From Mobula birostris (taxonomy: Eukaryota), in the NCBI RefSeq assembly GCF_030028105.1, contig NC_092378.1:35892715-35956714 (forward strand): 64,000 bases of DNA, given 5' to 3'. The first letter of the stretch is position 1; each line of letters begins with the position of its first letter. Positions 5,204 through 63,410 of this stretch are shown in pieces. A model generated the notes under the pieces. That model made no database searches, was not told where the DNA came from, and saw only the letters and a list, made by a program, of their open reading frames with translations. The translations under genes were made by a program, and so were the position numbers.

Positions 5204-7116
5204 TAATGAGGAAAGAGAAAAAAGATTATGAGAGAAAACTGGCAGGGAACATAAAAACCGACTGTAAAAGCTTTTATAGATATGTGAAAAAAAAAGATTC
5301 GTTAAGACAAATGTAGGTCCCTTACAGTCAGAAACAGGTGAATTGATCATGGGGAACAAGGACATGGTAGACCAATTGAATAACTACTTTGGTTCTGTCT
5401 TCACTAAGGAGGACATAAATAATCTTCCGGAAATAGTAGGGGACAGATGGTCTAGTGAGATGGAGGAACTGAGGGAAATACATGTTAGTAGGGAAGTGGT
5501 GTTAGGTAAATTGAAGGGATTAAAGGCAGATAAATCCCCAGGGCCAGATGGTCTGCATCCCAGAGTGCTTAAGGAAGTAGTCCAAGAAATAGTGGATGCA
5601 TTAGTGTTAATTTTTCAAAAATCTTTAGATTCTGGACTAGTTCCTGAGGATTGGAGGGTGGCTAATGTAACCCTGCTTTTTAAAGAAGGAGGGAGAGAGA
5701 AACCGGGGAATTATAGACCGGTTAGCCTGCAATCGGTGGTGGGGAAAATGCTAGAGTCAGTTATCAAAGATGTGATAACAGCACATTTGGAAAGCGGTGA
5801 AATCATCGGACAAAGTCAACATGGATTTGTGAAAGGAAAATCATGTCTGACGAATCTCATAGAATTTTGAGGATGTAACTAGTAGAGTGGATAGGGGAGA
5901 ACCAGTGGATGTGGTATATTTGGATTTTCAAAAGGCTTTTGACAAGGTCCCACACAGGAGATTAGTGTGCAAACTTAAAACACATGGTATTGGGGGTATG
6001 GTATTGACGTGGATAGAGAATTGGTTGGCAGACAGGAAGCAAAGTGTGGGAATAAACGGGACTTTTTCAGAATGGCAGGCAGTGACTAGTGGGGTACCGC
6101 AAGGCTCAGTGCTGGGACTCCAGTTGTTTACAATATATATTAATGACTTAGACCAGGGAATTAAATGAAGCATCTGCAAGTTTGCGGATGACACGAAGCT
6201 GGGTGGCAGTGTTAGCTGTGAGGAGGATGCTAAGAGGATGCAGGGTGACTTGGATAGGTTAGGTGAGTAGGTAAATTCATGGCAGATGCAATTTAATGTG
6301 GATAAATGTGAGGTTATCCACTTTGGTGGCAAAAACAGGAAAACAGATTATTATCTGAATGATGGCCGATTAGAAAAAGGGGAGGTGCAACGAGACCTGG
6401 GTGTCATTATACACCAGTCATTGAAAGTGGGCATGCAGGTACAGCAGATGGTGAAAAAGGCGAATGGTATGCTGGCATTCATAGCAAGAGGATTCAAGTA
6501 CAGGAGCAGGGAGGTACTACTGCAGTTGTACAAGGCTTTGGTGAGACCACACCTGGAGTATTGTGTGCAGTTTTGGTCCCCTAATCTGAGGAAAGACATT
6601 CTTGCCATAGAGGGAGTACAAAGAAGGTTCACCAGATTGATTCCTGGGATGGCAGGACTTTCATATGATGAAAGACTGGATTGACTAGGCTTATACTCGT
6701 TGGAATTTAGAAGATTGAGGGGGGATCCTATTAAAACGTATAAAATCCTAAAGAGATTGGACAGGATAGATGCAGGAAGATTGTTCTCGATGTTGGGGAA
6801 GTCCAGAACGAGGGGTCACAGTTTGAGGATAAAGGGGAAGCCTTTTAGGACAGAGATGAGGAAAAACTTCTTCACACAGAGAGTGGTTAATCTGTGGAAT
6901 TCTCTGCCACAGGAAACAATTGAGGCCAGTTCATTGGCTATATTTAAGAGGGAGTTAGATATGGCCCTTGTGGCTAAAGAGATCAGTGGGTATGGAGAGA
7001 AGGCAGGTACAGGTTTCTGAGTTGGATGATCAGCCATGATCATACTGATTAGCGGTACAGGCTCAAAGGGCAGAATGGCCTACTCCTGTACCTATTTTCT
7101 AGGTTTCTATGTTTCT
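5204..7116 (+). mobile_element. CR1-clade LINE, 5'-truncated ORF2 (RT) with stops and frameshifts, plus 3' tail
   Basis: Consecutive ORFs carry [50 protein letters not shown] and VRPHLEYCVQFWSP. The tail ends GTTTCTATGTTTCTA. Confidence 0.95.
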
Positions 7117-21777: not shown

Positions 21778-22002
21778 TTCAATATTTAATATTTAAGTAA
21801 TATTTGAGTAATATTGTAAATATATTGTTTGAGTAGGCATTCTTTATTTAAATAATTACAGGTTATATGTAAAAATACGTGAATTGCATCCGTCATGATA
21901 CATGCGGGCCTCACTTTACAAGTAAATATAAAATACGACTTATCTCCTGACTCTTGTTTTGTTTTGAATTAGTTTAATGTTTTGAAGTTACAGAGCATTA
22001 AC
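21778..22002 (+). repeat. 5' LTR of the RBM25-carrying Gypsy element
   Basis: Diverged direct repeat of 24077-24313; shared blocks include TATTTAATATTT, AGTAATATTGTAA, TTACAGGTTATATG, GTGAATTGCAT and TTAATGTTTTG.AGTTACA. Ends in ...AACA. The 5' TG is not recognisable. Confidence 0.85.
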
Positions 22003-22317
22003 AGTGGTGATGTATTTTAAAACGAACCTGAGACTACCTACTTGAAGCGCAGTGAGACGTTCGAGTTTTAAAAAAGTGCAGCACGTGTTCTTCAGAAGGG
22101 AAGGCACGACTGAGTAAAAAAAGACAGGAAACAGAAGAATTTAAGGGTTCATAAACTCTAATAATAACCAATAAAAATAAAAATGGCTGGCTACATTGGA
22201 AAGATTGAAGCGTTTGATAAAACAACTGATAACTGGATTTTGTATACTGAAAAGATTGAGCAGTGTTTTAGGAGCACTAATCTGCGTGCTTTTGATAAAC
22301 AATCTGATAATAATGAG

Positions 22318-22640
22318 CAACACACATCAAAGTTGCTGGTGAACGCAGCAGGCCAGGCAGCATCTCTAGGAAGAGGTACAGTCGACATTTCAGGCCGAGA
22401 CCCTTCGTCAGGACTAACTGTAGGAAGAGTGAGTAAGAGATTTGAAAGTGGGAGGGGGAGGGGGAGACCCAAAAAAAATCTCTCACTAGCTCTTCTTTCA
22501 GTTAGTCCTGACAAAGGGTCTCGGCCTGAAACGTCGACTGTACCTCTTCCTAGAGATGCTGCCTGGCCTGCTGTGTTCACCAGCAACTTTGATGTGTGTT
22601 GCTTGAATTTCCAGCATCTGCAGAATTCCTCGTGTTTGCG
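22318..22640. mobile_element. Fold-back Penelope-derived element with two minimal hammerhead motifs, each with one substitution
   Basis: Inverted arms of ~100 bp. Perfect 13-bp TSD TGATAATAATGAG (22305-22317 and 22641-22653). The + arm reads AGTC-CTGACAA-AGGGTCTCGGCCT-GAAAC-GTC-GACT. Confidence 0.85.
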
Positions 22641-23122
22641 TGATAATAATGAGAATGGGACAGGACTGGGTAGCTTTGAGTTTTACAATATGAAAACAAG
22701 CAATATGGCACGTGCCAAAAGCGAACAGCAGATTAATTAAAATGGAACAGAACACTGGCTCAGCTGTTTCAGTCAATCCGCAAAATGAGTTTGAACAGCA
22801 TTTCAAATGACTGAAGCATGTAGATATCCAACTAAGAACTAATACTGAAGGAAAAAAAAACTCCTGAGGGAATGAGATTCGTAACAGTGAAATACACCAA
22901 CCAAAAAGCCACATTGGGATTGTATGTGGGGAAGAAACAGGAGGACCAGCATTGTTGGGAAGTGATTGGCTGACACAACTATAACTTGATTGGAGATCCA
23001 TCCACCCCCTGCGTGCCAGATCAAAAGAGTCAACTAAAAATGAATTAAGAAAGGTAGTGCATGATACCGCAACTGTCTCCATGCTGCACATCATAACTTG
23101 TTGCTCAACAGAGGGCAAACAG

Positions 23123-23755
23123 GTGCTGGTGCCAACCTCCGTGCCTCTGATCTGAAAGCATACTGGACCAAGGAAGGGCCATGTTGCTCAGAGGAAGTGT
23201 GGAATTGATGAAAGTAGTCATCCAACAACGACAGTTTTTGTAGGTAACATATCTGAGAAAGCCTCTGATATGTTAATCAGGCAGTTACTTGAGAAATGTG
23301 GCTTGGTTTTAAGTTGGAAGAGAGTTCAAGGTTGTGGCAGTAATGCACCATTAAGCTGGATGCCACCCACTGTTAAACAAGATGGAGGAGAAGGAGAAGA
23401 GGCTTCAAGGAGCTTCAGTAAGTGTTCAGCTTTTGTGAGTATAAAGAACCAGAATCTACTCTGCGTGCATTAAGGTTACTGCATGAAACTTCAAGTGGGA
23501 GATGAAATGCTGCTTGTAAAAATAGATGCAAAGACCAAAGCACAGCTGGATGAATGGAAGGCCAAAAAGAAATGAGTAAATGGAGATACAAAAACAAAGG
23601 ATTCATCAAGATGATATTGTGGATGAGGAAACCAAGAAGAGAGATCAGATTGTAAAAAGAGCAATAGAAGGATTAATCAGAGAATACTCCAGTGGACTTA
23701 ATGAATCTTCCCAAGATCAAGGTGCATAAACTAGAGAAAAAGGAACGAGAAGAAA
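23123..23755 (+). pseudogene. RBM25: Processed (intronless) fragment of RNA-binding protein 25, RRM region, disabled
   Basis: Translates as VLVPT...PTTTVFVGNISEKASDMLIRQLLEKCGLVLSWKRVQG / FCEYKEPESTLRALRLLHE / LQVGDEMLLVKIDAKTKAQLDEWKAKKK / DEETKKRDQIVKRAIEGLIREYSS, which matches vertebrate RBM25 as I recall it. It has in-frame stops (e.g. TGA 23153-23155), frameshifts and a 72-bp insertion. Confidence 0.93.
23332..23403 (+). mobile_element. 72-bp insertion in the RBM25 fragment, probably the extreme 3' end of a non-LTR (RTE-like) element
   Basis: Flanked by the direct repeat TTCAAGG (23325-23331 and 23404-23410); ends in a (GAG/GAA)n-like tail. The family assignment is tentative. Confidence 0.6.
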
Positions 23756-24076
23756 GGTATCGAGAGCAGTCAGAATCGCTTCTAACAGTCTCAAAGTCAA
23801 CTCCCACAACCGCCATGGAGGAGGCCCCAGAACCTGAGACTGCTTCACAGCCACAAGTCTCACCTGCCAAGCAGAGCGACCTCCTTTGTCAGGAAAGATG
23901 TTATCCCACAGAGTAAGAAATTTTCCACGAAGATTAATCTTTAGGGCTAAATGGGACAATTTAAAATTTAATGTGCTGTGGATGCCTGTATGTAGTAGTT
24001 GTCTTATTCAGTATATTGCGTATATAGTTGAGGTGTATTCTGTATCGAGTTAGTTTATAGCGAAGCAAGGAGGAGT

Positions 24077-24313
24077 GTTGTGTATTTAATATTTCACTAA
24101 TATCTCAGTAATATTGTAATTATGTTGTTGATTAAACATTCTTTATTTGTTTAAATAATTCATTACAGGTTATATGCAAAAATATGTGAATTGCATACAT
24201 CATCATACATATGCGCCTCGCTTAAAAAGTAAAAATGAAGTACATGAATTATCTTCTGACTCCCCAGTTTTCCTTTGAACTAGCTTAATGTTTTGGAGTT
24301 ACAAAACATGAGA
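24077..24313 (+). repeat. 3' LTR of the RBM25-carrying Gypsy element
   Basis: Starts TGTTGTG directly after the polypurine tract; homologous to 21778-22002. Confidence 0.88.
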
Positions 24314-33844: not shown

Positions 33845-35820
33845 TTTGTGTACAAAGGCTGTTGTAAATCTAGTCAAGAAGAAAAGAAGAGCTTACGAAA
33901 GGTTGAAAAAACTAGGTAATGATAAAGATCTAGAAGTATATAAGGCTAGCAGGAAGGAACTTAAGAAAGAAATCAGGAGAGCCAGAAAGGGCCATGAGAA
34001 GGCCTTGGTGGACAGGATTAAGGAAAACTCCAAGGCATTCTACAAGTATGTGAAGAGTGTAAGAGAATAGGATCAATCAAGTGTGACAATGGAAGAGTGT
34101 GTATGGAACCAGAGGAGATAGCAGAGGTACTTAATGAGTATGGCTTCAGTATTCACTACGGAAAAAGATCTTGGCGATTGTAGGGATGACTTACAGCGGA
34201 CTGAAAAGCTTGAGCATGTAGATATTAAGAAAGAGGATGTGCTGGAGCTTTTGGAAAGCATCAAGTTGGATAAGTCACCAGAACCGGACGAGATGAACCC
34301 CGGGTTACTGTGGGAGGTGAGGGGGGAGATTGCTGAGCCTCTGGCAATGATCTTTGTATCATCAGTGGGGACGGGAGAGGTTCCAGAGGATTGGAGGGTT
34401 GCAGATGTTGTTCCATTATTCAAGAAAGGGAGTAGAGATAGTCCAGGAAATTATAGACCAGTGAGTCTTACTTCAGTGGTTGGTAAGTTGATGGAGAAGA
34501 TCCTGAGAGGCAGGATTTATGAACATTTGGAGAGGCATAATATGACTACGAATAGTCAGCATGGCTTTGTCAAAGGCAGGTTGTGCCTTACGAGCCTGAT
34601 TGAATTTTTTGAGGATGTGACTAAACACATTGATGAGGGTAGAGCTGTAGATGTAGTGTTTATGGATTTTAGGAAGGCATTTGATAAAGTACCCCATGCA
34701 AGGCTTATTGAGAAAGTAAGGAGGCATGGGATCCAAGGGGACATTGCTTTGTGGATCCAGAACTGGCTTGCCCACAGAAGGCAGAGTGGTTGTAGACAGA
34801 TCATATTCTTCATGGAGGCATGGAGTGGTGTGCCTCAGGGATCTGTTCTGGGACCCTTACTCTTTGTGATTTTTATAAATGACCTGGATGAGGAAGTGGA
34901 GGGATGGGTTAGTAAATTTGCTGATGACACAAAGGTTGGAGGTGTTGTGGATAGTGTGGAGGGCTGTCAGATGTTACAGCAGGTCATTGATAGGATGCAA
35001 AACTGGGCTGAGAAGTGGCAGATGGAGTTCAACCCAGATAAGTGTGAGGTGTTTCATTTTGGAGGGTCAAATATGATGACAGAAGGTAATATTAATGGTA
35101 AGACTCTTGGCAGTATGGAGGATCAAAGGGATCTTGGGTTCTGAGTCCATAGGACGCTCAAAGCTGCTGCGTAGGTTGACTCTGTGGTTAAGAAAGCATA
35201 CGGTGCATTGGCCTTCATCAATCGTTTAGGAGCCAAAAGCTAATGTTGCAGCTATATAGGGCCCTGGTCAGACGCCACTTGGAGTACTGTGCTCAGCTCT
35301 GGTCGCCTCACTATGGGAAGGATATGGAAACCATAGAAAGGGCACAGAGGAGATTTACAAGGATGTTGCCTGGATTGGGGAGCATGCCTTATGAGAATAG
35401 GTTCAGTGAAATCGGCCTTTTCTCCTTGGAGCGACGGAGGATGAGAGGTGACTTGATAGAGGCATATAAGATGATGAGAAGTATTGATTGTGTGGATAGT
35501 CAGAGGCTTTTTCCCAGGGCTGAAATGGCTAGAACGAGAGCGCACAATTTTAAGGTGCTTATAAGTAGGTACAGAGGAGATGTCAGGGGTAAGGTTTTTA
35601 TTTTATGCAGAGAGTGGTGAGTGCGTGGAATGGACTGCTGGTGACGGTGGTGGAGTCGGATACGATAGGGTCTTTTAAGAGACTCCTGGACAGGTACATG
35701 GAACTCGGAAAAATAGAGGGCTATAGGTAACCCAAGGTAATTTCTAAGGTAGGGACATGTTCGGCACAGCTTTGTGGGCCGAAGGGCCTGTATTGTGCTG
35801 TAGGTTTTCTATGTTTCTAT
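33845..35820 (+). mobile_element. CR1 LINE, 5'-truncated ORF2 with stops and deletions
   Basis: ORF 34134-35144 has [31 protein letters not shown] and FADDTK. The tail is TTTTCTATGTTTCTAT. Confidence 0.95.
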
Positions 35821-37905: not shown

Positions 37906-38279
37906 CCAAACACACTGTTACAGTCTCCAGTACATTGAGCTGTGTGCATCGGCCATTTTAAAACTGAACAACTGTAATTTGCAATTAAAGGCATTTGTAA
38001 TTCATCAACTAACTTCAGAAACTAGCTACCCAGCCTAATTTCAGAACCCATGTCTGTTAGACAAGAAAAGGACTGACTTTACCCTATCTTAGCCCTGGTT
38101 CCCTGTACCACCCTGCAAGGGTGCATTTCATTTACTCGTGTCAGATACTGCTCTCCAGATGGAGAGGGGAGATTGTAGGGAGAGAGGAGGTAGGAGCCTC
38201 TGCTACACTTGTTCCCCCTCACAGGTCAAATATAGAGCAGGATTGATGACAGCTTCGAAACAATTGGGTCTCTGAACTC

Positions 38280-38493
38280 ACATCAAAGTTGCTGGTGAAC
38301 GCAGCAGGCCAGGCACCATCTCTAGGAAGAGGTACAGTCGACGTTTCAGGCCGAGACCCTTCGTCAGGACAAGGGTCTCGGCCTGAAACGTCGACTGTAC
38401 CTCTTCCTAGAGATGCTGCCTGGCCTGCTGCGTTCACCAGCAACTTTGATGTGTGTTGCTTGAATTTCCAGCATCTGCAGAATTCTTGTTGTT
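38280..38493. mobile_element. Fold-back Penelope-derived element, near-perfect 81-bp inverted repeat
   Basis: Arms 38281-38361 and 38371-38451 with one mismatch and a 9-nt loop. 15-bp TSD TGGGTCTCTGA(A/C)CTC at 38265-38279 and 38494-38508. Confidence 0.88.
38335..38370 (-). ncRNA. Minimal type I hammerhead ribozyme motif with an intact core
   Basis: Minus strand GUC-CUGACGA-AGG GUCUCGG CCU-GAAAC-GUC-GACUG: stem I GUC/GAC, core CUGANGA and GAAA, stem II AGG/CCU, GUC cleavage triplet, no stem III. Activity cannot be shown from sequence. Confidence 0.7.
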
Positions 38494-52347: not shown

Positions 52348-53737
52348 TAGACAATAGACAATAGGTGTAGGAGTAGGTCATTCAGCCCTTCGAGCCAGCA
52401 CCACCTTTTACTGTGATCATGGCTGATCATCCACAATCAGCACCCTTTTCCTGCCTTCTGCCCATATCCCTTTACTCCGCTATCTTTAAGAGCTCTATCT
52501 AACTCTTTTTTGAAAGAATCCAGAGAATCGGCCTCTACTGCCTTCTGAAGCAGAGCATTCCACAGAATCACAACCCTCTGTGTGAAGAGTTTTTCCGCAA
52601 TTCTGTTCTAAATGGTCTACCCCTTATTCTTAAACTGTGGCCTCTGGTTCTGGACTCCCCCAACATCGGGAACATGTTCCCTGCCTCTAGCTTGTCCAAT
52701 CCCCTAATAATCTTACATGTTTCAATAAGGTCCCCTCTCATCCTTCTAAATTCCAGTGTATACAACCCCAGTTGCTCCAATCTTTCAACATATGACAGTC
52801 CCGCCATCCTGGGAATTAACCTCATGAACCTACGCTGCACTCCCTCAATAGCTAGAATGTCCTTCCTCAAATTTGGAGACCAAAACTGTACACAATATTC
52901 CAGGTGTGGTCTCACCAGGGCGCTGTACAACTGCAGAAGGACCTCTTTGCTCCCATACTCAACTCTCCTTGTTATGAAAGCCAGCATGCCATTAGCTTTC
53001 TTCACTGCCTGCTGTACCTGCATGCTTACTTTCAGTGACTGATGAACAAGGACACCTAGATCTCGTTGTACTTCCCCTTTTCCTAACTTGACACCATTCA
53101 GATAGTAATCTGCCTTCCTATTGTTGCCACCAAAGTGGATAACCTCACATTTATCCACATTAAACTGCACCTGCCTTGCACCTGCCCACTCACCCAAGCT
53201 GTCCAAGTCACCCTGCATTCTCATAACATCCTCCTCACATTTCACACTGCCACCCAGCTTTGTGTCATCTGCAAATTTGCTAATGTTATTTTTAATCCCT
53301 TCATCTAAATCATTAATGTATATTGTAAATAGCTGCGGCCCCAGCACTGAGCCTTGCGGTACCCCACTAGTCACTGCCTGCCATTCTGAAAAGGACCCAT
53401 TAATCCCTACTCTGTTTCCTGTCTGCCAACCAATTTTCTATTCATGTCAGTACCCTACCCCCAATACCATTTGCTCTAATTTTGCACACTAACCTCCTAT
53501 GTGGGACCTTATCAAAGACTTTCTGAAAGTCCAGGTACACTACATCCACTGGCTTTCCCATGTCCATTTTCATTGTTACATCCTCAAAAAATTCCAGAAG
53601 ATTAGTCAAGCATGATTTCCCCCTTGTAAATCCATGCTGACTCGGACCTATCCTGCCACTGCTATCCAAATATGCCGCTATTACATCTTTTATAATTCAT
53701 TCCAGCATCTTCCCCACCACTGATGTCAGACTAACTG
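52348..53737 (-). mobile_element. CR1 LINE, 5'-truncated RT region
   Basis: ORFs 53442-53669 and 52568-53374 ([30 protein letters not shown]). Tail TAGACAATAGACAATAGG on +. Confidence 0.95.
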
Positions 53738-57154: not shown

Positions 57155-59164
57155 GGTTTTGGAGGTTGTTGATTAAAACTGAGGGTAAGATTGTGTTGGA
57201 TGCCGAGATGCAATCAATAAATAGCAAACAAGGGAAAATCTGCAGATGCTGGAAATCCGAGCAACACACACGGGGTCCTGCCGAAGGGTTTTGGCCCAAA
57301 ATATTATTGTACTTTTTTCCATAGATGCTGCCTGACCTGCTGAGTTCCTCCAGCATTTTGTGTGTGCTGCATCAATAAACAGCAGCCTGATGTAGATATT
57401 GCTATTATCTAGCTGATCCAAGGCCAGTGAGATTGCATCTGCTGTAGATCTAATGTGGCAATAGGCAAATTGCAGCAGGTCTAGGTCCTTTGCAAGAATT
57501 GATTCTGGCCATGACCAACCTCTCAAAGTACTTCATCACAATAGGTATGAGTGCAACTGGACGAAGGTTGTTGATGAAGCTCACCCTGATCTTCTGGGGC
57601 ACTGATATGATTGTCACCCCCTTAAAACAGATTGGGACTTCTGACTGTAGCAGTGAAGCAAAGATAATGGCCAGTGTAGGGCAACCGTTACAGCCACAAG
57701 TTCTTGCTGCACAACAGGTTTCTTGGCTTAACTATTTTCTTCTATTCAATCAATGATTTAGACAAGATCAGGAACGAGACTCTTCAAAATACAGTAAATG
57801 TGAAATATTCTTTTCCATGACTGCTGATGAAGCAGCACATGACAACACATGGAAACACTGAGGTCTTGGGCTGACAAATGGATGACCACACCTCACAAGT
57901 TTTATGCTGTGACTTCCTATTGTTATGGCTATAGTTCCTATAACCATAAATGCTCCTACAATCAACCTTATTAGAAACTTAACCAGATGCGGGACACAAC
58001 TTATTCCAGGCTACAAGACCATAGTCCAAATGGTTCTATTCAATATCAGAGAATGTATATAATAGAGCATAGCAACTTCTAGTTGCCCTGCTATATTTCC
58101 GCTGTTATCACAAGGCCAATGGAATTCATACCGCTGCATGTTTGAAGATGTTTGAGAAAGGCAGACCTGATCAAAATCTATGCTACACCCACAATATTTT
58201 CATCCATCAGCGGTGCACTGTGAATTCACTAGCAGCTGTTTATAGGATGTAGCAGATCTTTGAACTTTCTTCAGCAGTACGTGGGAGCCAATTGACAACC
58301 GCCAAGACAGGGCAAGGCAGTAATATTAACAGAGCAAGTCACCTCCAAGTGACTTTTCTTCTTCATTGTCATTAAATCAGAATTCTATAAATCTATAAGT
58401 AGCATTGTTGGGAGTACTCAACAACAACAGTTGGCATTTATACAGTAAATCTAACATAGAAAAATATTCCAGGAAGGATAATCAGACAACAGTTGATACT
58501 GACCACATGGTTCTTTGCCAGAACACACAAAAAACTCCATAATTAAAATCCTCATGGCCTGTCTGTTTAAGTTAGTTGTGACATTAAAGTGGTGATTATA
58601 AAGTACAGTTCAGTACACACATCTACCTTCCATTGTACACAGATGCTCATCATACAGTGATAAAGAAACCAAAACTTGGTAATTCCTTCCAGCCAGTTCA
58701 CTAACTCAACACCATTTATAGAAATGTACTGAACTATCCAAGTTTCAGCATCTATCACAATTAATTTATAAAGGAACAATCTACTGATAAAGCTCCTCAT
58801 TTCCAGTACATGAAATCCATGCTGCTTCCCTAAAGTGGCAGGTACCCTCATTCTCTATGTGTCTTTCAGAGAATTCCACTGCACAAGTATCTCCAAGTTG
58901 TTCCTATTGTCCACTTAGAGTTGGGCCAAACCTGAACCTTGGTACTTGTCTAATGACCAACCTCATTGCGGGTGAGTCTGGATGCAGGAGGGCTTGACAG
59001 TAGGTGGGTTAAAGGGCAAAGGAAAGCACTAAATTAGGAGTGAGGTGCCTTCGTGCACATGATGGAAAAATGTCTGTAACAGCCTGAAATTTGATAGCTG
59101 TTTTAGATGGTTTAACAGAACACCAAGGAATGGCTGTTGATGAAATAACCAACTGTGATTCATA

Positions 59165-59400
59165 AACTTCAGAATCTTCAGAAAATGCTGGAGGAACTCA
59201 ACAAGACAGGCAACATCTATGGAAGGAATGAAACAGTCGATGTTTCGGGCTGAGACACTTCATCAGACCCGTGATGTCCCACTGAAAGCTCTCGATCCGT
59301 AAAGCGGATGGTTTATTCCTCTCCGTAGATGCTGCCTGACCTGCTGAGCTCCTCCAGCATTTGATGTGTGTTACTTAAGATTTCCAGCATCTACAGAATC
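59165..59400. mobile_element. Degenerate fold-back hammerhead-family element
   Basis: AATGCTGGAGGAACTCA...CAGTCGATGTTTCGGGCTGAGACACTTCATCAG (minus: CTGATGA...GAAACATC) and the inverted arm CTGCTGAGCTCCTCCAGCATTT. Confidence 0.7.
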
Positions 59401-60985: not shown

Positions 60986-63410
60986 CATAGAACATAGAAC
61001 AATGTTGTGCCGACCCTCAAACCCTGCCTCCCATATAAGCCCCCACCTTAAATTCCTCCATATACCTGTCTAGTAGTCTCTTAAACTTCACCAGTGTATC
61101 TGCCTCCACCACTGACTCAGGCAGTGCATTCCATGCACCAACCACTCTCTGAGTAAAAAACCTTTCTCTAATATTCCCCTTGAACTTCCCACCCCTTACC
61201 TTAAAACCATGTCCTCTTGTATTGAGCAATGGTGCCCTGGGAAAGAGGCGCTGGCTATCCACTCTATCTGTTCCTCTTATTATCTTGTACACCTCTATCA
61301 TGTCTCCTCTCATCCTCCTTCTCTCCAAAGAGTAAAGCCCTAGCTCCCTTAATCTCTGATCATAATGCATACTTTCTAAACCAGGCAGCATCCTGGTAAA
61401 TCTCCTCTGTACCCTTTCCAATGTTTCCACATCCTTCCTATAGTGAGGTGACCAGAACTGGACACAATACTCCAAGTGTGGCCTAACCAGAGTTTTATAG
61501 AGCTGCATCATTACATCGCGACTCTTAAACTCTATCCCTCGACTTATGAAAGCTAACACCCCATAAGCTTTCTTAACTACCCTATCTACAAGTGAGGCAA
61601 CTTTCAGGGATCTGTGGACATGCACCCCCAGATCCCTCTGCTCCTCCACACTACCAAGTATCCTGCCATTTACTTTGTACCCTGCCTTGGAGCTTGTCCT
61701 ACCAAACTGTACCACCTCACACTTCTCCGGGTTGAACTCCATCTGCCACTTCTCAGCCCACTTCTGCATCCTATCAATGTCTCTCTGCAATCTTCGACAA
61801 TCCTCTACACTATCTACAACACCACCAACCTTTGTGTCGTCTGCAAACTTGTCAACCCACCCTTCTACCCCCACATCCAGGTCGTTAATAAAAATCACGA
61901 AAAGTAGAGGTCCCAGAACAGATCCTTGTGGGACACCACTAGTCACAACCCTCCAATCTGAATGTACTCCCTCCACCACCACCCTCTGTCTTCTGCAGGC
62001 AAGCCAATTCTGTATCCACCTGGCCAAACTTCCCTGGATCCCATGCCTTCTAACTTTCTGAATAAGCCTACTGTGTGGAACCTTGTCAAATGCCTTACTA
62101 AAATCCATATAGATCACATCCACTACACTACCCTCATCTATACGCCTGGTCACCTCCTCAAAGAACTCTATCAGGCTTGTTAGACACAATCTGCCCTTCA
62201 CAAAGCCATACTGACTGTCCCTGATCAGACCATGATTCTCTAAATGCCTATAGATCCTATCTCTAAGAATCTTTTCCAACAGCTTTCCCACCACAGACGT
62301 AAGGCTCACTGGTCTATAATTACCTGGACCATCCCTATTACCTTTTTTGAACAAGGGGACAACATTTGCCTCCCTCCAATCCTCCAGTACCATTCTCGTG
62401 GACAACGAGGACATAAAGATCCTAGCCAGAGGCTCAGCAATCTCTTCTCTCGCCTCGTGGAGCAGCCTGGGGAATATTCCGTCAGGCCCTGGTGACTTAT
62501 CTGTCCTAATGTATTTTAACAACTCTAACACCTCCTCTCCCTTAATATCAACATGTTCCAGAACATCAAGCTCACTCATATCGTCCTCACCATCACCAAG
62601 TTCCCTCTCATTGGTGAATACCGAACAGTGTTCATTGAGGACCTCGCTCACTTCCACAGCCTCCAGGCACATTTTCCCACAGCCTCCAGGCACATCTTCC
62701 CACCTTTATCTCTAATCGGTCCTACCTTCACTCCTGTCATCCTTTTTTTCTTCACATAATTGAAGAATGCCTTGGGGTTTTCCTTTACCCTACTCGCCAA
62801 GGCCTTCTCATGCCCCCTTCTTGCTCTTCTCAGCCCCTTCTTAAGCTCCTTTCTTGCTTCCCTATATTCCTCAATAGACCCATCTGATCCTTGCTTCCTA
62901 AACCTCATGTATGCTGCCTCCTTCCACCTGACTAGATTTTCCACCTCACTTGTCACCCATGGTTCCTTCACCCTACCATTCTTTATCTTCCTCACCGGGA
63001 CAAATTTATCCCTAACATCCTGCAAGAGATCTCTAAACATCGACCACATGTCCATAGTACATTTCCCTGCAAAAACATCATCCCAATTCACACCCGCAAG
63101 TTCTAGCCTTATAGCCTCATAATTTGCCTTTCCCAATTAAAAATTTTCCTATCCTCTCCGATTCTATCCTTTTCCATGATAATGCTAAAGGCCAGAGAGC
63201 GGTGGTCACTGTCCCCCAGATGCTCACCCACTGAGAGATCTGTGACCTGACCCGGTTCATTACCTAGTACTAGATCTAGTAGGGCATTCCCCCTAGTCGG
63301 CCTGTCCACATACTGTGATAGGAATCCGTCCTGGACACACTTAACAAACTGTGCTCCATCTAAATCGTTGGAATTAATCAGGTGCGAATCAATATTAGGG
63401 AAGTTAAAGT
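60986..63410 (-). mobile_element. Young CR1 LINE, 5'-truncated within the endonuclease domain
   Basis: EN motifs GNFNFP, LDLVL and SDH, a long open RT frame, and tail CATAGAACATAGAAC on +. Confidence 0.95.
61017..62693 (-). CDS. CR1 ORF2 reverse transcriptase fragment (558-aa open frame, N-terminus cut off by a frameshift)
   Basis: Uninterrupted [44 protein letters not shown] and C-terminal motifs. Not a host gene. Confidence 0.9.
   Translation of the reverse strand: MPGGCGKMCLEAVEVSEVLNEHCSVFTNERELGDGEDDMSELDVLEHVDIKGEEVLELLKYIRTDKSPGPDGIFPRLLHEAREEIAEPLARIFMSSLSTRMVLEDWREANVVPLFKKGNRDGPGNYRPVSLTSVVGKLLEKILRDRIYRHLENHGLIRDSQYGFVKGRLCLTSLIEFFEEVTRRIDEGSVVDVIYMDFSKAFDKVPHSRLIQKVRRHGIQGSLARWIQNWLACRRQRVVVEGVHSDWRVVTSGVPQGSVLGPLLFVIFINDLDVGVEGWVDKFADDTKVGGVVDSVEDCRRLQRDIDRMQKWAEKWQMEFNPEKCEVVQFGRTSSKAGYKVNGRILGSVEEQRDLGVHVHRSLKVASLVDRVVKKAYGVLAFISRGIEFKSRDVMMQLYKTLVRPHLEYCVQFWSPHYRKDVETLERVQRRFTRMLPGLESMHYDQRLRELGLYSLERRRMRGDMIEVYKIIRGTDRVDSQRLFPRAPLLNTRGHGFKVRGGKFKGNIRERFFTQRVVGAWNALPESVVEADTLVKFKRLLDRYMEEFKVGAYMGGRV

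Follow-up and report, generated by a model that had tools for sequence, protein, structure and literature searches.

Anatomy of the window copy and of its RBM25 insert

The window, by which we mean the whole stretch of 64,000 nucleotides that was analysed, carries a dead member of an old Gypsy-type LTR family in which a piece of spliced RBM25 mRNA lies between the protease region and the integrase tail (Table 1). A previous reading of this DNA, made from the letters alone and referred to here as the sequence-only reading, had described a pair of LTRs with a primer-binding site and a polypurine tract between them. Two diverged direct repeats were indeed found; the first is followed by a primer-site-like motif, and a polypurine tract precedes the second. 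Its statement that reverse transcriptase (RT), RNase H and the integrase core are missing from this copy was borne out, and all three are present in sister copies. The gag start that it described lies at 22183; the gag deletion of ~0.7 kb and the palindromic repeat that follows it were overlooked. The copy was also called old and disabled; the K2P divergence between its two LTRs is 0.189 over 223 sites, and its protease region has stops, frameshifts and a damaged active site. Inspection of the LTR flanks gave no readable 5-bp target duplication for this copy.

Table 1. Features of the window copy and of its RBM25 insert (positions in the window)
Feature	Position	Strand	Remark
5' LTR	21783..22003	+	differs from the family terminus in the first ~7 nt, by loss or mutation
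Primer-binding-site-like motif	22005..22015	+	directly 3' of the LTR, same position in sister copies
gag start	22183..22317	+	compared with sister copies, ~0.7 kb of gag is missing between 22269 and 22272
Palindromic dispersed repeat, later insertion	22318..22640	.	13-nt duplication 22305-22317 / 22641-22653
gag-protease linker and aspartic-protease region	22654..23064	+	ends at the protease/RT border
Putative 5' switch point, 7-nt microhomology	23065..23071	+	reads TGCCACA in the RBM25 gene and in pol-bearing sisters; degraded in the window copy
Spliced RBM25 mRNA	23065..23746	+	alignment to the genome's RBM25 gene
RBM25 exon 3 end (last 10 nt)	23065-23074	+	alignment to parent gene
48-nt RBM25 exon	23075-23122	+	alignment to parent gene
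RBM25 exon 4	23123-23293	+	RRM in exons 4-6
RBM25 exon 5	23294-23421	+	RRM in exons 4-6
79-nt insertion, private to the window copy	23332..23410	+	interrupts the RRM; 7-nt duplication
RBM25 exon 6	23422-23584	+	RRM in exons 4-6
RBM25 exon 7	23585-~23746	+	alignment to parent gene
Putative 3' switch point, 9-nt microhomology GAGAAGAAA	23747..23755	+	present in exon 10 of RBM25 and in the integrase tail
Integrase C-terminal tail and 3' untranslated region	23756..24062	+	sequence comparison
Polypurine tract	24063..24075	+	adjoins the 3' LTR
3' LTR	24076..24313	+	pairs with the 5' LTR

Other repeats occur in the window. The palindromic repeat has arms of 128 nt that are 94% complementary and recurs in the window at 38275-38460, 57275-57370 and 59327-59375; it is abundant, matching many times within the 200 kb that contain RBM25, and its cover in sequencing runs is very deep. 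LINE-like reverse-transcriptase remnants, the longest open stretch being 562 aa, lie at 5280-5870, 34122-35144, 52568-53437 and 61017-62705.

The insert had been assigned to RBM25, and this assignment held. A 44-aa stretch of it gave 310 protein matches, and among the best 120 the named ones were RBM25, or else unnamed RRM proteins, with a best identity of 91-93% over the 44 aa. A Pfam search of six open reading frames of the window returned only a sub-threshold RRM match, and a PDB sequence search with 42 aa returned nothing. The parent gene was located on contig C1 with a C-terminal stretch of fish RBM25, 200 kb around it were fetched and the exons were mapped; the exon numbers used here are working labels of the present analysis. 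A search with the Pfam PWI domain as a route to the parent recovered two other genes and not RBM25. One PWI-domain exon, at C3:7535840-7535995, presumably resembles PRPF3 and has changes that may mark a pseudogene copy.

Insert and parent gene are identical at 528 of 600 bases. Five exon-exon junctions (23074/5, 23122/3, 23293/4, 23421/2 and 23584/5) are crossed without an intron, so that the window copy lacks five introns, 17.7 kb in total, which the parent has across this region; the intron loss that had been proposed from the sequence is thus confirmed. Neither a poly(A) tail nor a duplication was found around the insert in the window copy, and both mRNA ends are missing, again as described before. 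The insert had been taken to begin at 23123 whereas it begins at 23065, because the end of exon 3 and the 48-nt exon had been mistaken for element sequence. This 48-nt exon is at C1:154450900-154450947, between the usual exons, and its peptide is also present in the RBM25-like proteins P0121 and P0122 of Heptranchias perlo; it was not found in the bony-fish and frog RBM25 proteins compared. On the ground of this peptide the host was taken to be a cartilaginous fish. The RBM25 piece had further been read as an RRM region of ~630 bp in the sense orientation. The orientation is right, and the RRM is broken by the private 79-nt insertion. This insertion is the terminal part of a different dispersed repeat, for which there are 321 first-look candidates in the genome.

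Junctions, subfamilies and size of the chimeric family

The longest captures found in the genome span mRNA positions 39-1110, that is, ~1,070 nt from the end of exon 3 to the start of exon 10 with eight introns gone, and this is the piece that the founder carried. Their 5' junction lies on the 7 nt TGCCACA that the element shares with RBM25 exon 3, and their 3' junction on the 9 nt GAGAAGAAA of exon 10 and the integrase tail. In four pol-bearing sisters without large insertions, the pol segment that the founder capture replaced measures 2,412-2,679 bp. Both flanks of the insert match the same pol-bearing copies and are therefore discontinuous halves of one LTR element. A junction list was compiled from the protease-selected loci, leaving out L170-L176; of 29 other loci, fetched as top matches of the RBM25 piece, 28 contain the 5' junction and 27 continue into the element tail. 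Both junctions are thus common to many loci and lie on short mRNA/element homologies, which argues that this is not a retrocopy that was inserted separately and trimmed later. The features of a LINE-made processed pseudogene, namely, poly(A), a duplication of its own and an intact 3' end, were not found, and the capture ends in exon 10. The shared junctions, their microhomologies and the introns of the parent therefore uphold the view of the sequence-only reading that this is LTR-mediated capture and not a LINE-made processed pseudogene.

Deletions have since divided the family. Shorter classes of 58/61, ~169, ~208, ~250 and >400 nt, counted from an anchor in exon 7 to the tail, recur among 62 copies. 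One exon 7 marker has the derived state in 30 of the 33 copies without exon 8, as against 8 of the 26 copies that keep it, and this distribution points to nested descent over several copying rounds. The window copy belongs to the shortest class and lacks exons 8-9 through a subfamily deletion; its 3' junction, previously taken as original, is a secondary deletion product, and the in-frame fusion of the founder described below had also been missed. At L014 (~1290-1500) the integrase is rejoined ~185 nt upstream of the usual 3' junction, which suggests a later switch onto pol-bearing RNA or recombination. Separately, three pol-bearing loci of the protease-selected set (L156, L175 and L176) stop at one place in RT (~4992 of L227) and resume at the tail; they are possibly a second, plain deletion subfamily and a natural control for whether the cargo matters.

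The pol-bearing sisters have the same LTR, gag, protease and tail as the chimeras. They match the Pfam domains RVT_1 (E 2.6e-13), RT_RNaseH (1.6e-6), Integrase_H2C2 (6.5e-12) and rve (6.1e-11), and the order protease-RT-RNase H-integrase, pieced together from different copies anchored on one integrase match, is the Gypsy order. TG...CA LTRs, primer site and polypurine tract are all present in the family, and gag has weak matches only in Pfam. The 5-bp target duplication, the short LTR and gag and pol in one frame are Mag-like features. The likeness to the Mag lineage of Ty3/Gypsy (PMC3286476) consists of 5-bp duplications, elements of ~5 kb and short LTRs, of 119-304 bp in that lineage and of ~235 bp in the RBM25 family. 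From such sequence features, placement in the Mag lineage is only a lead.

Genome-wide there are 600 matches to a 22-nt motif that spans the 5' junction, at no more than one mismatch (291 forward, 309 reverse), and the reversed motif used as a control does not occur at all. The motif would catch 28 of the 70 sampled copies that cover the 5' end, which scales to ~1,500, and this sample favours well-kept copies. Hence there are at least 600 chimeric copies and probably ~1,500-2,500, dispersed over many contigs. With the RBM25 piece as query there were 3,188 first-look candidates, and all of the 40 that were scored matched; first-look numbers (3,188; 3,559; 5,381; 5,714) are not copy numbers. The intact protease/RT border motif occurs 1,210 times, so that by motif counts chimeras are about one third of the family. 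Selection by protease favours the pol-bearing copies, which are slightly less diverged; of 28 loci so selected, 4 are chimeric and 23 of the other 24 lead into pol; among 29 loci selected by the tail, RBM25 is upstream in 22 and RNase H-integrase in 4. The share of chimeras in the family is put at 15-33%, as much as a third by motif counts.

Two LTRs of the family lie within the 200 kb around RBM25, at C1:154378706-154378934 and C1:154406324-154406559, and from these solo LTRs may far outnumber full copies. Chimeras at C35:35325508-35326098, C35:35427336-35427926 and C3561:17020-17610 look near-identical and have the same 236-aa open frame; they are probably a segmental duplication plus an unplaced haplotype.

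Integration, age and decay of the copies

The copies were integrated in the manner of the family. Of 32 LTR pairs with readable ends, 22 were used (16 chimeric, 6 pol-bearing) and their 5-bp flanks are 64% identical; shuffled 5-bp flanks are 32% identical and none of 2,000 shuffles reached 64%. The same comparison showed nothing for target duplications of 4 bp or 6 bp. It had been suggested that the chimera could have moved as a non-autonomous element, and with at least 600 copies and the 5-bp duplications of the family this was an understatement.

LTR divergence is 0.226 in chimeras (20 pairs from 40 loci, range 0.13-0.33) and 0.220 in pol-bearing copies (9 pairs from 20 loci), and a gag-protease tree is star-like with chimeric and pol-bearing copies mixed. 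This near-equal divergence together with the mixed, star-like tree indicates one burst. At a substitution rate of 0.5-1 x 10^-9 per site per year, assumed as an order of magnitude, the divergence of 0.11 per copy would correspond to some 110-220 million years. Organism F, an outgroup run, differs from the host at 40 exon sites; among these the copies match the host at 34, F at 3 and neither at 3, and so the capture was from the RBM25 of the host's own lineage after its split from F. The F run itself has cover in 9 of 30 bins of the element, and such low cover is compatible with presence. In the runs of organisms C, D and E there are contigs over the 5' junction. Two contigs of organism E join the flanks of the window copy to its LTRs with 6 and 3 differences; the insertion in the window is therefore shared with E.

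In 23 chimeric copies one register stays free of majority stops for 600 codons that begin in gag and run through RBM25 exon 7, whereas the other registers have 1-13 majority-stop codons per 50 codons. Thus the fusion frame of the founder was open, and its RBM25 part was in frame with gag-protease. The copies themselves carry little sign of constraint. Diversity among 79 copies is 0.178 at 0-fold and 0.169 at 4-fold sites, this set being what remained after eleven alignment rows were dropped (eight spurious with K above 0.34 and three under 300 sites), and diversity is likewise flat over the codon positions of gag and protease. Synonymous changes make up 0.268 of the total, where 0.281 is expected. 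Sixteen of the 18 sites that separate most copies from the parent are synonymous; four of the 18 could be polarised with organism F, and three of these are host changes after the capture and one is on the element side. Judged by DNA in 79 copies and by protein in the best 150 matches, the sampled copies decay neutrally and none looks domesticated. A star-like burst leaves little trace of selection, and hence "neutral" applies to the copies and not to the founder.

Probable capture mechanism and known systems

The most likely explanation, to which we give a probability of about 0.85, is that RBM25 was captured into a Gypsy element by template switching and was then amplified as a non-autonomous family. 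An RBM25 mRNA would have been co-packaged in a particle with the element RNA, and the reverse transcriptase would have switched onto this mRNA and back at the 7-nt and 9-nt homologies. The resulting hybrid would have exchanged ~2.5 kb of pol for spliced RBM25 mRNA, shortening its genome by ~1.4 kb, while keeping its LTRs, the primer site and the polypurine tract, and a gag-protease frame that was still open. Because of these retained cis signals and the open frame, the founder was probably like a short defective-interfering RNA which would have made Gag itself and relied on pol-bearing sisters for RT and integrase, by trans-complementation. Slippage in the purine-rich Arg/Glu region would then have given shorter subfamilies that were copied further, the RBM25 piece being most likely a passenger. 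Support for this sequence of events comes from the intron loss, the shared junctions, the end homologies, the sisters with full pol, the 5-bp duplications, the equal ages, the nested subfamilies and the neutral decay.

A passenger role of the RBM25 piece leaves unexplained the rise of one derivative to 15-33% of the family. Such a share, up to one third, would agree with a useful cargo, either because an in-frame Gag-protease-RBM25 protein with the RRM and the Arg/Glu region helped to package or export its own RNA, or because the match to an essential host mRNA shielded the element from small-RNA silencing; we consider this unlikely. The register free of majority stops would agree with it, and the commonest deletion classes (58/61, ~169 and ~208 nt) preserve the reading frame, none of them having lost the RRM exons. 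A capture of a host gene that suppresses silencing is reported for telomeric elements of Drosophila (PMC13534243). However, an in-frame junction has a chance of 1 in 3, slippage between codon-periodic repeats preserves the frame by itself, and across the deleted region the frame holds in only 29 of 62 copies. There is no codon-position signal in RBM25, gag or protease, and one of the changes that define subfamilies in the RBM25 part is an amino-acid replacement. The excess 4-fold difference of the host is ~0.08, which does not exceed the copies' own decay of ~0.10, and no accelerated escape of the host was seen. If the cargo was useful after all, a vertebrate retrotransposon would have traded its enzymes for a domain of a host splicing factor as a parasitic strategy, and the hybrid would have out-copied ordinary deletion derivatives owing to its cargo.

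The 7-nt and 9-nt homologies raise another question, since they also fit microhomology-mediated DNA repair, which yields equal short overlaps. In a DNA-level route, a cDNA of RBM25, whether from a LINE or from the element's own RT, would have recombined with the element, or a LINE retrocopy would have been inserted and trimmed, before the amplification. LINE remnants are abundant in the window, and still we regard this as somewhat less probable even than a useful cargo. Poly(A), duplication and both mRNA ends are absent, the junctions lie exactly on mRNA/element homologies with pol removed in one piece, and insertion plus trimming needs two further precise deletions. In addition, all 12 of the top protein matches that were checked lie inside an LTR element and none is a free retrocopy. 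Finally, that at least one copy became an RBM25-derived retrogene is very improbable: a minority of the best 150 of 5,714 protein-search candidates have no stop inside the match and pN/pS is near 0.4 in a few copies, but these 150 are only 62-84% identical in amino acids, 66 of the 79 copies have in-register stops, the low ratios rest on 14-21 synonymous changes at the tail end of 79 values, 58 matches in 1.84 billion cluster representatives include no gag/protease-RBM25 fusion protein, and a junction-spanning protein query found no relative of near length in the protein collections.

Capture by template switching followed by amplification would mean that a single accident of this kind can spread a fragment of a host gene to hundreds to thousands of sites in a vertebrate genome. 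The family preserves both switch points, the helper element, the deletion intermediates and an old splice form including the 48-nt exon, and it is a good natural record of LTR capture and of defective-interfering amplification. Its copies are prone to be mis-annotated as RBM25 paralogs and can disturb read mapping to the real gene; they can also be used as insertion markers between species.

A literature search found no published description of the RBM25 chimera family, subscription papers being mostly outside its scope and supplements, Repbase and Dfam outside it, and an entry for the family may exist in a repeat library. LTR-mediated retrocopies in animals, with their mechanism and secondary copying, have been published (Tan et al. 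2016, PMC5131818), and the word "shark" is absent from the main text of that paper. Those retrocopies are likewise partial spliced mRNAs between discontinuous halves of an LTR element, with microsimilarity at both switch points and neither poly(A) nor duplication; they are in sense and in frame and are recopied as non-autonomous elements. In the RBM25 family we find the same marks, namely, an intron-less partial mRNA, discontinuous element halves, microsimilarity at the switch points and secondary retroposition with shared junctions. The cases of Tan et al. are mostly young and of low copy number (Bs1 has 1-5 copies), whereas the RBM25 family has at least 600 copies and nested subfamilies, all of them old and decayed. 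CrocERV29, which carries KIT ligand (9 copies), and CrocERV31, which carries nectin3 (6 copies), are also old vertebrate LTR lineages with a host mRNA that were copied again (Chong et al. 2014, PMC4299795). They are, however, retroviral and not Gypsy and keep pol, and their captured open reading frames are under purifying selection, whereas in the RBM25 family pol is the part that was lost and the insert decays neutrally. Host coding sequence has been amplified by a vertebrate transposon in bat Helitrons too, with 118 copies over four cases, but these are DNA transposons and their retrogenes are LINE-made with poly(A) and duplications (PMC4224331). The TR-GAG elements of plants resemble the chimera as short non-autonomous LTR elements that keep gag and have lost RT and integrase; the RBM25 family keeps protease too, and no captured host mRNA is described in the abstract on TR-GAG (PMC4350172). 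Thus the mechanism is known, and what is unusual here is the scale, which is about two orders of magnitude above that of the LTR and ERV captures compared (1-9 copies).
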